Shown: one piece after another, positions 21,721 to 57,647 of the stretch | Numbering within the stretch: position 1 is the first letter of the stretch | Layout of the letters: the number at the start of each line of letters is the position of its first letter | NCBI GenBank assembly: GCA_902562135.1 | Contig: CACESE010000006.1 | Span: 7,231 to 71,230 of the forward strand | DNA from: an uncultured SAR86 cluster bacterium | GTDB taxonomy: Bacteria > Pseudomonadota > Gammaproteobacteria > Magnimaribacterales > AG-339-G14 | Reading direction: 5' to 3' | Length of the DNA stretch: 64,000 nt | Notes under the pieces: model-generated | Seen by the model: the letters and a program-made list of their open reading frames with translations, nothing else | What the model was told of the DNA's origin: nothing | Database searches by the model: none | Made by a program: the position numbers and the translations under genes

Positions 21721-22382
21721 AGAAAAAATTAGCTAATTTAGAAAAAGATTTGGATTATACTTTCAAAGATAAGAATTTATTAATTAAAGCACTTACTCAC
21801 ACAAGCAGTTCCCAAGAAAATAACGAAGTCCTAGAGTTCTTAGGAGATTCAGTTTTGAATCTAATCGTCACAGAATTGTTACTTGAAAAATTTCCTAACG
21901 AGAATGAAGGGTTTCTTAGCTTGATGCGTTCGAAATTAGTTAGCAGAAAGATACTTAATAAGATAGCTAATGGTTTTAAATTGGAGGAATTTCTAATTTT
22001 AGGAGAGTCATTTAAAAACCAAAAAATTCCAGAAGATTTATTGGGAAATGCTCTGGAAGCAATTCTTGGGTCAATTTTTTTAGAAAAAGGATTGCAGCCT
22101 CTGAGAAAAATTTTTAAAAAAAATTTTAATAAAGAAATTTCATTACTTTCGAAATCTGACTTGAAAAATAGTAAGACTATTTTGCAAGAATATTGTCAAA
22201 AAAATAAGTTTAACTTACCAACATATAATCAAATAAAGAAAGATGAAAAATTAAATTCTTTTATTGTGATTTGTCGCTTAAATAAAGACCTACAAAGTCT
22301 AGGTCATGGAAAAAATTTAAAATGTGCTGAACAAGATGCAGCTGAAAAGTTAATTAAAGAAATAAAAATCATAAATGGATAA
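21717..22382 (+). CDS. rnc: Ribonuclease III
   Basis: NEVLEFLGDSVL, EAILGSIFLE, C-terminal dsRBD. Confidence 0.93.
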   Translation: MKKKLANLEKDLDYTFKDKNLLIKALTHTSSSQENNEVLEFLGDSVLNLIVTELLLEKFPNENEGFLSLMRSKLVSRKILNKIANGFKLEEFLILGESFKNQKIPEDLLGNALEAILGSIFLEKGLQPLRKIFKKNFNKEISLLSKSDLKNSKTILQEYCQKNKFNLPTYNQIKKDEKLNSFIVICRLNKDLQSLGHGKNLKCAEQDAAEKLIKEIKIING

Positions 22383-23259
22383 AAAATTTGGGTTCGTTTC
22401 TTTGACCGGAAGAACTAACGTAGGAAAGTCGACTCTTCTAAATGCTTTTTTCCAAAAAAAAATTGCGATAACTTCAAGGAAACCACAAACGACCAGAAAT
22501 AGAATTTTAGGTATTTTCTCAAGAGGAAGTAATCAAATTGTTTTTCTTGACTCTCCAGGCGTTCATACTGGATATAAAAGAGCTCTAAATAAATATATGA
22601 ATAAAACAGCCAAAGCGTGTTACGAGGAAGTCGATTTAGTAGTTTTTGTCGTAGACAGAGATAAGTGGCAAATTGAAGAGGATAATATTTTAAAAAATCT
22701 TAAAGAACTAAAGAAACCTGTATTATTAGTAATTAATAAAATTGACAGAATAAAAAATAATAACAACATTTTGCCAATTATAAATGAGCTTAGCTCTAAG
22801 CACTCTTTTGAAGCAATTATGCCCGTCTCAGCTTTAAAAAAAATGGAAGTCGATTCATTGCTTTCAAAAATAATTGAAACTATTCCATCTGGAGAATTCC
22901 ATTACCCAATTGAAAATGAAAAAGAGTTTTCTAAATCTTTTTATATATCAGAAATAATTAGAGAAAAAGCAATCAACAGGTTAGGTGACGAATTACCTTA
23001 CAGAATTAATGTAGAAGTGGAAAAGATTGACGAAGAAAAATCTATTCAACATATTCACTCAAACATTTACGTTGAGTCTTCAAGTCAAAAGGCTATTTTG
23101 TTAGGAAAGAATGGAACAATGATTAAATCAATTGGAATATCTTCAAGAAAAGAGCTGGAAAGAGAACTTGAATCAAAGGTAAATTTGCAGTTGAGAATAA
23201 GAGTTAAAAAAAATTGGACTAACGACGTCAATCTTTTGTCTAAATATGGGTACGAATAA
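22375..23259 (+). CDS. era: GTPase Era
   Basis: GRTNVGKST, KPQTTR, NKID, KH domain (ELPY...VKKNW). Confidence 0.95.
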   Translation: MDKKFGFVSLTGRTNVGKSTLLNAFFQKKIAITSRKPQTTRNRILGIFSRGSNQIVFLDSPGVHTGYKRALNKYMNKTAKACYEEVDLVVFVVDRDKWQIEEDNILKNLKELKKPVLLVINKIDRIKNNNNILPIINELSSKHSFEAIMPVSALKKMEVDSLLSKIIETIPSGEFHYPIENEKEFSKSFYISEIIREKAINRLGDELPYRINVEVEKIDEEKSIQHIHSNIYVESSSQKAILLGKNGTMIKSIGISSRKELERELESKVNLQLRIRVKKNWTNDVNLLSKYGYE

Positions 23260-23262
23260 ATA

Positions 23263-23291
23263 TTGTAATTTTTGGCAGTTTGTACTAGAAT
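23263..23291 (+). promoter_or_regulatory. Sigma70-type promoter for the riboswitch-peptide unit
   Basis: TTGTAA-N17-TAGAAT; predicted start near 23298, exactly at GTAATCGTTC. Confidence 0.65.
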
Positions 23292-23297
23292 TGCACA

Positions 23298-23435
23298 GTA
23301 ATCGTTCATCTTTTGCACTATTTAAATGCATGAGACGGAAGTAGGAAGATAGGAAAACCTCTTTCTTCCAATGGGAGGAAAGGTTAGCAAGTACCGAATG
23401 CGGGAACGAGACCGAATATCTAACGAAGGAACGCG
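23298..23435 (+). ncRNA. Glutamine riboswitch-like RNA (glnA motif) with expanded P3
   Basis: GUAAUCGUUC...P2 (UCUUUUGCA/UGCAUGAGA)...CGGAAGUA...GAAGGAACGCG. P1 is CGUUC (23303-23307) paired with GAACG (23429-23433); loop-E AGUA/GAA is present. Same core order as the cyanobacterial glnA aptamer. Confidence 0.8.
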
Positions 23436-23497
23436 TTGAGAAGGGTGTACGTCGGGAGACGTATGTACGAAATCGATACGAAAACTGGAGGCACGAT

Positions 23498-23662
23498 ATG
23501 GCTACTTACTATAGAGGCGTTAAAGTAAACTCTGATAACTCTAATTCTGAAGGAAGCACTTCAAAGGGTGGAATTTACAGAGGCATTAAACACGACGCAT
23601 TACAAAACAATAAGTCAGCTAAAAATCCTGGGATTTATCGCGGGACTAAAACAGCTGCATGA
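23498..23662 (+). CDS. 54-aa YRG-repeat peptide (DUF4278 / Downstream-peptide-like)
   Basis: GGAGG RBS at 23487-23491. MATYYRGVKVNSDNSNSEGSTSKGGIYRGIKHDALQNNKSAKNPGIYRGTKTAA. Below the ORF-track length cutoff. Confidence 0.85.
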   Translation: MATYYRGVKVNSDNSNSEGSTSKGGIYRGIKHDALQNNKSAKNPGIYRGTKTAA

Positions 23663-23683
23663 CTTTGTTTTAAGTTAAAAATT

Positions 23684-23713
23684 AGGGAGGCTTAACAGCC
23701 TCCCTTTTTTTTT
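23684..23713 (+). terminator. Intrinsic terminator after the YRG peptide
   Basis: AGGGAGGC-TTAACA-GCCTCCCT followed by a T run. Confidence 0.9.
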
Positions 23714-23733: not shown

Positions 23734-24459
23734 TTGAAACATTCAAGGTTCTCATCTAAGGCTATACTTTTACATTCAGCTAATTTTAAAGAAACTAGTT
23801 TAATTGGAACTTTTTTTACAGATACATACGGTCTAATTAAATTAGTCGTAAAGGGAGCAAAAGCAAAAAAAAGTAGATTTTCAAACATAAAAGTTCCTGG
23901 AGCTGTTTTTGAAATAGAATTTGGCGGAAGAGGAGAATTAAAAAATCTTTATACATCTGAAATTATCGACTCTGTAGTTATAGATGAATCTAATTTAAAA
24001 ATTCATCTTTACTTGCATGAAATAATAATTAGAACCTTAGAATTGGAAGCGCCAGTAAAACCAATTTTTGAAAGTCTATTAACTATACTCAAAGAAATAG
24101 AAAAGATAAGTGATGCATCTCAAAAGGAGATTAAATTGAGACAATTTGAATTTCAATTGATTTCAGAGTTGGGTTACGAGTTTAGTCTATTAAATGATTG
24201 CAATGGAAAAATGATTAAAAAAGATTCTTTTTACGAATTTATTCCAAATCAAGGCTTAAGAGAAACCAAAGAAACTAGTGAAATTAGTCGTTTGAACGTT
24301 TCTAAGGGAAGTTCAATCTTAAAATTTAGTGAGGGAGCTTTTGAAAATGATCAGTCAAAAAAATTTATTAAATATATAATGAGATCTTCGTTGGATACAA
24401 TATCGACAAAACCTTTAAATTCTTCAAGATTTTTTAGATTAAAAAAAGATGCAAATTAA
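23734..24459 (+). CDS. recO: DNA repair protein RecO
   Basis: AILLHSANFKETSLI, LRQFEFQLISELGY, KPLNSS; follows era. Confidence 0.85.
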   Translation: MKHSRFSSKAILLHSANFKETSLIGTFFTDTYGLIKLVVKGAKAKKSRFSNIKVPGAVFEIEFGGRGELKNLYTSEIIDSVVIDESNLKIHLYLHEIIIRTLELEAPVKPIFESLLTILKEIEKISDASQKEIKLRQFEFQLISELGYEFSLLNDCNGKMIKKDSFYEFIPNQGLRETKETSEISRLNVSKGSSILKFSEGAFENDQSKKFIKYIMRSSLDTISTKPLNSSRFFRLKKDAN

Positions 24460-31148: not shown

Positions 31149-31234
31149 GCCGAAGTGGCGGAATTGGTAGACGCGCTCGATTCAAAATCGAGTGCCCAAA
31201 AGGCGTGAGAGTTCGAGTCTCTCCTTCGGTACCA
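31149..31234 (+). tRNA. tRNA-Leu(CAA)
   Basis: Cloverleaf; anticodon arm CTCGA-TTCAAAA-TCGAG, long variable arm, GTTCGAG, CCA end. Confidence 0.95.
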
Positions 31235-35878: not shown

Positions 35879-35953
35879 GTCCCCTTCGTCTAGCGGTTAG
35901 GACACCGGGTTTTCATCTCGGCAACAGGGGTTCGATCCCCCTAGGGGACGCCA
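35879..35953 (+). tRNA. tRNA-Glu(TTC)
   Basis: Acceptor GTCCCCT/AGGGGAC, anticodon loop TTTTCAT, GTTCGAT, CCA end. Confidence 0.95.
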
Positions 35954-42174: not shown

Positions 42175-42250
42175 GCGATTGTAGCTCAGTTGGTAGAGCG
42201 CGACCTTGCCAAGGTCGAGGCCACGGGTTCGAACCCCGTCAATCGCTCCA
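42175..42250 (+). tRNA. tRNA-Gly(GCC)
   Basis: 76-nt cloverleaf, anticodon arm CGACC-TTGCCAA-GGTCG, CCA end. Confidence 0.96.

Positions 42251-57572: not shown

Positions 57573-57647
<75 letters not shown>

Follow-up and report, generated by a model that had tools for sequence, protein, structure and literature searches.

A conserved three-way-junction module in the P3 arm of a predicted glutamine riboswitch from SAR86 bacteria, marine metagenomes and T4-like phages

Results and Discussion

The riboswitch locus and its transcript

The DNA analysed here, referred to as the window, is a stretch of 64,000 nucleotides from an uncultured SAR86 cluster bacterium (contig CACESE010000006.1). The locus of interest lies between era and recO and comprises the following features.

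22375-23259: era, 5′ of the riboswitch locus
23263..23291, + strand: promoter-like site, TTGTAA and TAGAAT separated by a 17-base spacer (consensus scan, 9/12 matches)
23435..23497, + strand: expression platform GAGAAGGG, with a hairpin at 23448-23463, an A-rich stretch and the ribosome-binding site GGAGG at 23487-23491
23498..23662, + strand: ORF of 54 codons with three YRG repeats, DUF4278-like
about 23684..23713, + strand: intrinsic terminator, a 9-pair stem followed by a T run
23734-24459: recO, 3′ of the riboswitch and the small ORF

The product of the 54-codon ORF resembles the Pfam domain DUF4278 with an E value of 5.2e-5 and a score of 24.0 bits, which is slightly below the cut-off of 25.3. 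DUF4278 is a domain of the cyanobacterial glutamine synthetase inactivating factor IF17, and gifB, the gene encoding IF17, is described as a known target of the class of type-1 glutamine riboswitches (PMC6212724). The YRG-repeat ORF is kept in all relatives. The expression platform is kept across genera, and its hairpin at 23448-23463 shows visible covariation. The platform was also considered as a type-2 glutamine aptamer. This assignment was rejected: the platform contains neither a match to RF01704 nor a second match to RF01739, and its sole resemblance is to the Erse sRNA, with 10.4 bits, at the ribosome-binding site.

Metatranscriptome contigs from four runs of four studies span the leader and the ORF, extending from 23298 or 23337 to 23663-23691. 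The cover by contigs in the four runs lies within 23298-23691, and missing cover outside this interval does not constitute a finding; metatranscriptome libraries can also include DNA. In three of the four runs, the RNA contig ends at 23684-23691. One of the contigs, X2, ends at 23298, which is 7 bases 3′ of the second promoter hexamer, and carries at this end a tail that we take to be a template-switch oligo. This is a hint, not proof, that 23298 corresponds to the 5′ end of the RNA. A small separate transcript starting 5 bases ahead of P1 fits the RNA contigs.

The outer glutamine aptamer

The single riboswitch found by cmscan in the window is a match to RF01739 at 23301-23437 on the + strand, which reaches 37.0 bits (E 2.2e-4) where the gathering score is 35. 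A 79-base insertion accounts for this narrow margin: the P3 arm of the match contains 79 unmodelled bases where about 8 are expected by the model. This agrees with the insert placed at 23345-23424 by the original prediction, which had been made from the sequence of the window alone. A family search of the source genome with RF01739 missed the element at 23301-23437, a limit of the first look of that search. The aptamer outside the insert is composed as follows.

23303..23307, + strand: 5′ strand of P1, CGUUC, pairing with 23429-23433 in the cmscan alignment
23309..23335, + strand: extended P2 hairpin, 4 + 4 pairs about a U.U mismatch, with a 9-base loop
23336..23343, + strand: CGGA, the J2/3 linker, then AGUA (23340-23343) as 5′ strand of the outer loop E
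23344..23351, + strand: 5′ strand of the P3 stem, with a G-C pair, a G.A layer, an A.A layer and AGAUA; partner 23417-23424
23417..23427, + strand: 3′ strand of P3 (23417-23424), followed by GAA (23425-23427) as 3′ strand of the outer loop E
23429..23434, + strand: 3′ strand of P1, GAACG, and C23434; invariant

All five pairs of P1 (CGUUC/GAACG) are identical in 62 of 62 relatives, and P2 shows compensatory changes at seven of its eight pairs in the same set. Also present, and invariant across the relatives, are the CGG linker, the AGUA/GAA loop E and the C that follows P1 (23336-23343, 23425-23427 and C23434), and the segment 23336-23343 agrees with the RF01739 consensus. C23434 is the expected partner of G23338 in a single long-range pair. 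Such a single-pair pseudoknot is annotated in the glnA alignment of 2010 (Additional file 5, PMC2864571) and described for the glutamine riboswitch (PMC12510878). According to the structural work, glutamine is bound by P1 through its first two pairs (C-G and G-C), by the linker G in a base triple and by a metal ion, while P3 juts out sideways and is peripheral in the solved structure (PMC6698751). Ligand binding is reported to lead to "dramatic conformational changes" of P3 (PMC5393176). The element at 23301-23437 is a predicted type-1 glutamine riboswitch in which every defining feature that can be recognised in the sequence is present.

The insert is a conserved structured module

The insert occupies the end of the P3 arm and is built from the following parts.

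23347-23351 / 23417-23421, + strand: AGAUA/UAUCU closing helix, which continues P3
23352..23359, + strand: purine-rich strand GGAAAACC, of which the AAACC part is drawn unpaired
23360..23383, + strand: hairpin A, 10 pairs including the basal U.G and C-G, with an AAUG loop
23384..23389, + strand: junction dinucleotide UU followed by AGCA; C23388 pairs with G23408, and A23389 lies opposite C23407
23390..23393, + strand: 5′ strand of the inner loop E, AGUA
23394..23403, + strand: hairpin B, CCG-AAUG-CGG; 8-30 bases long among the elements
23404..23416, + strand: 3′ strand of the inner loop E, GAA (23404-23406), then CGAG, the ACC bulge and GAA (23414-23416)

Taken by itself, the folding energy is uninformative (z = -0.58; 59 of 200 shuffled sequences are equally stable); it is the comparison of relatives that decides. 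When the structure was applied to 62 distinct relatives, 93.7% of the cells paired, against 80.3% in column-shuffled alignments, none of which (0/500) reached the observed value. The same structure shifted by 1-3 columns gave only 37-53% paired cells. Compensatory changes were seen at 8 of the 10 pairs of hairpin A, whose two basal pairs are invariant, at both basal pairs of hairpin B, where C-G is swapped for G-C or U-A, and at seven of eight pairs of the P3 stem with the closing helix. The closing helix AGAUA/UAUCU is replaced in relatives by AAAAC/GUUUU, GUAAC/GUUAC, GAC/GUC and others. Since the alignment of the 62 sequences had been fitted to its own model, the structure was retested by RNAalifold with a separate, plain MAFFT alignment comprising 36 diverse inserts. 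Both hairpins were recovered, with compensatory changes at seven of nine pairs. In an unbiased set of 21 sequences, which were picked by the outer aptamer alone with the insert disregarded, 26 of 65 insert positions are identical; the longest invariant runs are GAAAACCUC (23353-23361) and GAGACCGA (23408-23415). The invariant part is the junction, while the hairpin loops vary in sequence and length. The insert is a real, conserved and structured module. In this respect the original prediction of a nested subdomain is supported: the covariation in the 62 relatives shows a structured and conserved unit rather than a random expansion.

The sequence strings on which this prediction was built, AGAUA/UAUCU, the long hairpin at 23360-23383 and GCAAGUA-CCG-AAUG-CGG-GAA at 23387-23406, are found in the window as quoted. 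Two details had to be revised. For the long hairpin, a register AACC/GGUU with one bulged C had been proposed; it yields 67.9% paired cells against 66.3% after shuffling, and sliding it by one column gives a higher score. The conserved register of hairpin A is UCUUUCUUCC/GGAGGAAAGG, and the hairpin is 13-26 bases long among 107 elements. The AAUG loop common to both hairpins does occur twice in the window, yet it is a coincidence of this genome, as the loops of relatives vary freely. The suggestion that the hairpins provide protein-binding loops fails for a similar reason, because the loops are the variable part of the insert and the junction is the invariant one.

The second AGUA/GAA loop E, expected by the original prediction inside the insert, stands at the foot of a covarying hairpin in both the pairing test on 62 relatives and the RNAalifold analysis. 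AGUA and GAA flank hairpin B in 105 of 107 distinct elements (in the named exception, L133, the 5′ strand reads AUUA), so that this loop E is as well supported as sequence allows. It is flanked by covarying pairs of hairpin B (2/2) on one side and on the other side by the pair C23388-G23408, which is C-G in 61 of 62 relatives. Four distinct elements carry one extra base per strand between the loop E and this C-G pair, which adds a U-A pair; an insertion in a single strand at this place was found in none of the distinct elements. Judged by this pattern, the inner AGUA/GAA probably adopts loop E geometry of the bulged-G (sarcin-ricin) type, which would comprise a sheared A.G, a U.A.G triple and an A.A layer.

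Two pairing schemes can be drawn for the GAG at 23408-23410. In the first, model X, GAG pairs with CUC (23359-23361), which would bring its topology close to that of the outer aptamer. In the second, model Y, GAG pairs with AGC (23386-23388) and extends the loop E helix, and hairpin A gains the U.G and C-G pairs at its base. Counts of pairs are unable to separate the two models, because all the pairs concerned are invariant. Model Y is preferred on account of the four paired insertions described above and of the divergent element L149, which has a Watson-Crick helix at this place and lacks GAG.

At the other end of the junction, G23353 with A23415 and A23354 with G23414 are possible tandem G.A pairs next to the ACC bulge (23411-23413). 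The layer outside them, 23352/23416, is variable (G.A, U-A, G-C or U.C), a variability also seen in known k-turns. The junction dinucleotide varies too and reads CA, UA, UU, CU, AA or AU. The segment 23352-23354 together with 23411-23416 resembles a kink-turn in sequence, with the G.A layers and the ACC bulge invariant, a resemblance that amounts to compatibility at the level of sequence. The module was not classed as a kink-turn because a canonical helix beyond the bulge is absent: the opposite strand runs through AAACC (23355-23359) unpaired, and in the preferred model G23410 beside the bulge has no adjacent Watson-Crick partner. The non-canonical motifs and the three-dimensional shape of the module are putative. 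The connector that links the module to the outer loop E measures 5 bases per strand in 14 of the 107 elements and 8-11 bases in the other 93.

Relation of the insert to the glutamine aptamer

The original prediction interpreted the insert as a nested duplicate of the aptamer and suggested that it could confer cooperativity. The architectural part of this claim stands. The insert repeats the three-way arrangement of the outer aptamer (a closing helix, a 5′ hairpin and a 3′ hairpin on a loop E), including the AAGUA...GAA of this loop E, and also contains the word GAACG, a copy of the 3′ strand of P1 located at 23404-23408. The functional part does not. RF01739 gave no match on the insert alone at E values up to 10. 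R2, a lineage model derived from 45 short aptamers of the same marine habitats, gave at best 0.0 bits on the + strand of 23346-23422 (E 0.73), and its best overall score, 3.2 bits, was on the - strand. The sole candidate for an inner closing helix, CUC/GAG with the pairs C-G, U-A and C-G, is paired in 61 of 62 relatives and never covaries, and the paired insertions and L149 favour the other pairing of GAG. The inner linker has the form GG-YW-AGCA; there is neither a CGG linker nor a C after the inner GAACG that could form the long-range pair. The insert contains no copy of the residues that form the glutamine pocket, to which P1 contributes its initial C-G and G-C pairs and the CGG linker contributes a G. 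By every test available, the insert is not a second glutamine aptamer. Cooperative binding of a second glutamine is unlikely because the pocket residues are not repeated, and we regard a nested duplicate with such a response as barely credible. The insert was also compared with the other known RNA families. With E values up to 10, Rfam returned as the best match a fragment of the Moco motif (9.0 bits, E 7.8), and assignment to a known family was rejected.

In the minimum-energy fold calculated by RNAfold, the inner GAACG pairs with the 5′ CGUUC strand of P1 (-29.7 kcal/mol, compared with -29.0 kcal/mol when the native P1 is enforced). R2 aligns the leader through the inner GGAACG (23301-23411, 21.5 bits), and two other classes of P3 insert from metagenomes hold explicit CGUUC/GAACG hairpins (L165 and L201; L092, L097 and L195). 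These observations make it plausible that part of the insert arose by duplication.

The same three observations can be read as signs of a decoy, in which the inner GAACG (23404-23408) competes with the outer one for the 5′ CGUUC strand. As the inner word is transcribed about 25 bases earlier, it could form a transient or ligand-free closure, which would exclude P3 and the outer loop E, with glutamine favouring the native P1. We consider such a decoy unlikely as the function of the insert. The loop E already accounts for the GAA of this word and the pair with C23388 for G23408, and the 26 invariant positions are not needed for a decoy. Furthermore, the word is broken in 4 of the 27 nested metagenome elements listed, being GAAAG in L098 and interrupted by an inserted base in L117, L146 and L155. 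Nearest-neighbour energies, moreover, leave out non-canonical motifs and cannot rank the alternative folds.

The invariant strand of the junction could also act on translation. CCUC(U) at 23358-23362 is complementary to the GGAGG at 23487-23491, both are invariant or nearly so, and their pairing in one state of the RNA would block translation. Partition-function folds of 124 leaders gave no support to this anti-ribosome-binding-site role: of the 117 leaders containing the motif, 103 show a pairing probability no higher than 0.1, and in the window it is 0.02. The CCUC stretch is moreover partly buried in the covarying hairpin A, and a related element, L025, shares the expression platform but does not contain the module. 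We therefore rejected this role, which appears very improbable.

Distribution of the module

A DNA search of 41 related genomes gave matches in 26 of them, and the same insert was found at 24 distinct places. At the locus L025 in the genome G010, the same P3 stem is capped by a 6-base loop and is followed by the same platform and gene, and the module is missing; it is present in five other genomes of the same genus. A covariance model was built from 23 of these related elements and used to search 151 genomes of the host order. Matches were obtained in 71 genomes. The long form is present in 44 of these, with 125-164 bits, and occurs in three of the four families of the order. G010 scores 67.5 bits, and the remaining matches are short canonical aptamers with 28-42 bits, several of them in tandem. 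A contig scan found only 5 loci despite the 44 carrier genomes, and may have omitted near relatives.

Metagenomes were scanned with a pattern anchored on the outer aptamer alone, in which 66-96 bases were permitted in P3. At least 120 stretches were obtained. Among the 120 matches listed, 86 are tandem pairs of aptamers that were read across, 27 contain the insert and 7 are of other kinds; the original remark that glutamine aptamers often stand side by side is thus borne out. Viral contigs, scanned for the 3′ part of the insert, yielded 109 stretches, and the full element is present at 73 of the 80 flanked loci, in 41 distinct versions. In four of five long viral records, a gene for a T4-type major capsid protein adjoins the element. 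In cultured phages, no match was found when the element of the window and one viral element were compared by blastn with 50,697 phage records.

A YRG gene lies downstream of the element in 104 of 104 cases with sufficient flank. None of the 135 distinct nested elements has a second aptamer motif within 250 bases, and none of the 68 tandem aptamers in the sample is followed by a YRG ORF; the tandems serve other genes. The short aptamers of the same bacteria likewise serve genes other than YRG. In one family of the host order, two tandem aptamers (seen at L074 and L075) stand before a gene of the YRG kind instead. The insert is found with at least three types of expression platform, including that of the window.

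RF01739 matches have been listed for SAR86 bins (PMC12379486), and glutamine riboswitches occur in phages of OM43 and SAR11 (PMC9004378). In its account of the class, the study of the gifB riboswitch states that glutamine riboswitches occur only in cyanobacteria and marine metagenomes (PMC6212724).

A possible second input through the nested module

The pattern of conservation raises the possibility that the module is itself a sensor, whose invariant junction would recognise a further effector. Candidates are metabolites of the nitrogen/carbon balance (2-oxoglutarate or glutamate, for instance) and proteins, among them perhaps the YRG product, which is basic. The P3 stem is short, and in this case the formation of P3, and with it the sensing of glutamine, would hinge on the module being folded or bound, resulting in two-input control. 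Like an aptamer core, the insert has an invariant junction surrounded by variable hairpins and loops. The variable length of the connector suits an independent module, the association with YRG genes is exclusive, and the tandem aptamers at L074 and L075 serve the same gene kind in one family, which provides a precedent for extra sensing capacity at this gene. Several points weigh against a second input. The insert belongs to no Rfam family, the 9.0-bit Moco fragment being its best resemblance. The gene association can be explained by a cassette that moves as a unit, for example with phages, and no result points to a ligand. To our knowledge, no natural riboswitch has one aptamer nested inside another, and the prior for such an arrangement is accordingly low. 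On balance, binding of a second effector by the junction is the strongest alternative to the role proposed below, though one that we regard as doubtful. Its stricter form is somewhat more doubtful still: here the module would be a nested independent sensor of a carbon or nitrogen metabolite or of the YRG protein, P3 would form only when this sensor is bound, and glutamine would be read thereafter.

Comparison with known RNAs

Modules that bend a peripheral arm are known from other riboswitches: P2 of the lysine riboswitch contains a loop E and a k-turn, and TPP riboswitches contain a k-junction. The insert shares with them a loop E, an internal loop rich in G.A and a 3-base bulge, all located in a peripheral arm. 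In the lysine and TPP riboswitches, however, the bend joins conserved or covarying loops, whereas in the insert the loops vary and the junction is invariant; a simple k-turn also needs a canonical pair beside the bulge, which the insert does not have. In 5S rRNA, too, a closing helix meets two arms at a three-way junction, a hairpin arm on the 5′ side and an arm on the 3′ side in which a loop E lies near the junction. Its likeness to the insert is limited to this topology, as there is no match in sequence or model and the sizes differ (120 versus about 75 bases).

Among known systems, the element is closest to type-1 glutamine riboswitches such as that in the Synechocystis gifB leader (Klaehn et al. 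2018, PMC6212724). This leader shares with the element the P1 strands CGUUC/GAACG, P2, the CGG linker, the loop E and the C after P1, and it also forms the 5′ leader of a DUF4278 gene and lies near the ribosome-binding site. The two differ in that P3 of the element bears a conserved three-way junction of 65 bases instead of a small loop, in that the protein encoded here comprises only a short DUF4278-like part, and in their hosts, which are here an uncultured marine gammaproteobacterial order and T4-like phages rather than cyanobacteria. In the tandem glutamine aptamers presented by Weinberg et al. 2010 (PMC2864571), RNA is also added to a single aptamer, but the extra RNA of the window is nested in P3 and is not an aptamer by any model tested.

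The insert itself is contained in earlier data. Rows with a long P3 in the glnA alignment of 2010 (Additional file 5, PMC2864571) represent the same insert as that of the window: at least 15 rows hold an unbroken GAACGAGACC together with GGAAAACCUC and GCAAGUA. In the structure line of this alignment, P3 is a single hairpin of variable length whose interior is left unaligned; neither an inner junction nor inner hairpins nor a second loop E are marked, and the glnA section of the main text does not mention the insert (PMC2864571). A description of an extended P3 domain was not found in the literature searched; a long P3 may be mentioned by Ames and Breaker 2011 or by Ren et al. 2015. The sequences of the insert have been public since 2010, yet the domain appears not to have been analysed.

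Proposed role of the module

We tentatively propose, with somewhat less than even confidence, that the insert is an autonomous accessory module on the ligand-responsive P3 arm which tunes the switch. In a glutamine riboswitch of type 1, a conserved three-way-junction module stands in place of the loop at the end of P3, and this switch, located at the 5′ end of its own small transcript, would control translation of the DUF4278-like YRG microprotein. The module consists of four parts: a continuation of P3, a purine-rich internal loop with putative tandem G.A pairs opposite the ACC bulge, hairpin A, and hairpin B standing on the second AGUA/GAA loop E and a short helix. Its predicted effect on the switch would be exerted in cis through the fold alone, P3 being the arm that reorients upon glutamine binding. 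As a rigid, bent and self-folding cap, the module would determine how stable P3 and the outer loop E are, and also the geometry of P3; this would set the glutamine threshold and the folding kinetics. The inner GAACG strand may in addition briefly hold the 5′ CGUUC strand while the RNA is transcribed.

Several observations count for an accessory module. In the outer aptamer, P1, the linker, the loop E and the C that follows P1 have all been retained, the helices of the insert covary around an invariant junction, P3 is peripheral and moved by the ligand, and the leader and the ORF are found in RNA libraries. L025 retains the stem, the platform and the gene and lacks the module, which indicates that the switch can exist without it. 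The combination with at least three types of platform indicates that the module is part of the aptamer and not of the platform. Other observations count against the accessory cap. The two connector lengths argue against a fixed docking contact with the aptamer core. Since P2 and both hairpin loops vary, no partner for a loop-loop or loop-receptor contact is visible, and inspection by eye for kissing contacts between the hairpin loops and P2 revealed no conserved or complementary loops. The approximately 26 invariant positions, many of them drawn unpaired, exceed what a spacer or a bend usually requires and form a pattern characteristic of binding pockets. The occurrence of the module before YRG genes only may reflect either shared descent or a gene-specific function.

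Conclusions

Glutamine riboswitches have been described as cyanobacterial, with a small three-helix aptamer, millimolar affinity and a mode of action that was called unclear (PMC6212724). The elements analysed here constitute a large subclass, carried by heterotrophic bacteria of the ocean and by T4-like phages, in which an extra domain is conserved as strongly as the aptamer core. The natural deletion variant L025 offers a clean experimental comparison for the function of this domain. Should the module do no more than tune the aptamer, it illustrates how a sensor of low affinity is adapted to another cell type. Should it bind a second factor, the element would be the first two-input riboswitch from nature that is built by nesting, and synthetic RNA logic could take it up as a ready design. 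Nesting rather than tandem arrangement would then be in use in abundant, streamlined ocean bacteria and in their T4-like phages.

Expression platform and viral copies

The expression platform that separates the riboswitch from the YRG gene, the small DUF4278-like ORF downstream (23498–23662, + strand), occupies positions 23435–23497 of the window. It consists of GAGAAGGG, a covarying hairpin and ACGAAAUCGA.ACGAAAACUGGAGG, and is kept across genera as well as in the phage copies. The sequence AACGCGUU at positions 23430–23437 is self-complementary. In four of the five long IMG/VR contigs, the riboswitch–YRG cassette lies about 1–2 kb or less from a T4-type major capsid gene. The viral records concerned are G152–G155, with the loci L267, L279, L280 and L251, and their capsid gene matches Gp23 with an E-value of about 1e-144. 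The tRNA genes of the window are the following:

31149–31231, + strand, tRNA gene, ordinary
35879–35950, + strand, tRNA gene, ordinary
42175–42247, + strand, tRNA gene, ordinary
57573–57644, + strand, tRNA gene, ordinary

Variation within the P3 arm

Hairpin B, which sits on the inner loop E of the module, is lengthened to 22–30 bases in the loci L091, L133, L141, L205, L213, L221, L230, L254 and L280. The inner sequence UUUUGGGUCAAUA..CCAG recurs in the extended hairpins of several lineages, and this recurrence may mark a further conserved sub-element. The metagenome set was anchored on the outer aptamer only, with 66–96 bases allowed in P3. Two further kinds of large P3 insert were found among the metagenome matches listed. 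In the first, seen in L165 and L201, a CGUUC-AUUU-GAACG hairpin forms part of a three-way junction. In the second (L092, L097 and L195), a GAACG-GAU-CGUUC hairpin is followed by a stretch similar to the loop-E-less 'CGC AA ... GCCGACU' rows found in the 2010 alignment (PMC2864571). In both kinds, the P1 sequence recurs within P3. The metagenome locus L149 is a divergent relative of the module, with which it has the closing helix and the two hairpins in common. The position of the inner loop E is taken there by a Watson–Crick helix, and the junction sequence differs from that of the other module members. Despite this divergence, a YRG-type ORF is located downstream of L149 too.

Distribution in the host order

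Glutamine riboswitches are described in PMC6212724 as confined to cyanobacterial genomes. In contrast, 71 of the 151 genomes of the gammaproteobacterial order match a covariance model that was built from 23 related elements. The long form at positions 23301–23437 scores 37.0 bits and was missed in the family search of the window's own genome. Because this score is so near the Rfam cut-off of 35, routine annotation may overlook the long form in the same way.

At L073 and L076–L082, loci of the host order, single or tandem short glutamine aptamers are located upstream of other genes. These include small ORFs with an FFPYYL end; the start of one ORF looks like that of the glutamate synthase large subunit, and one, judged by its N-terminus, looks like a glutamine synthetase. 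At L074 (genome G047) and L075 (G101), both of family f3, a tandem pair of short glutamine aptamers precedes a YRG gene, and the platform resembles that of the window. Genes of the YRG family can therefore have upstream of them one short aptamer, as at L025, the nested one or a tandem pair.
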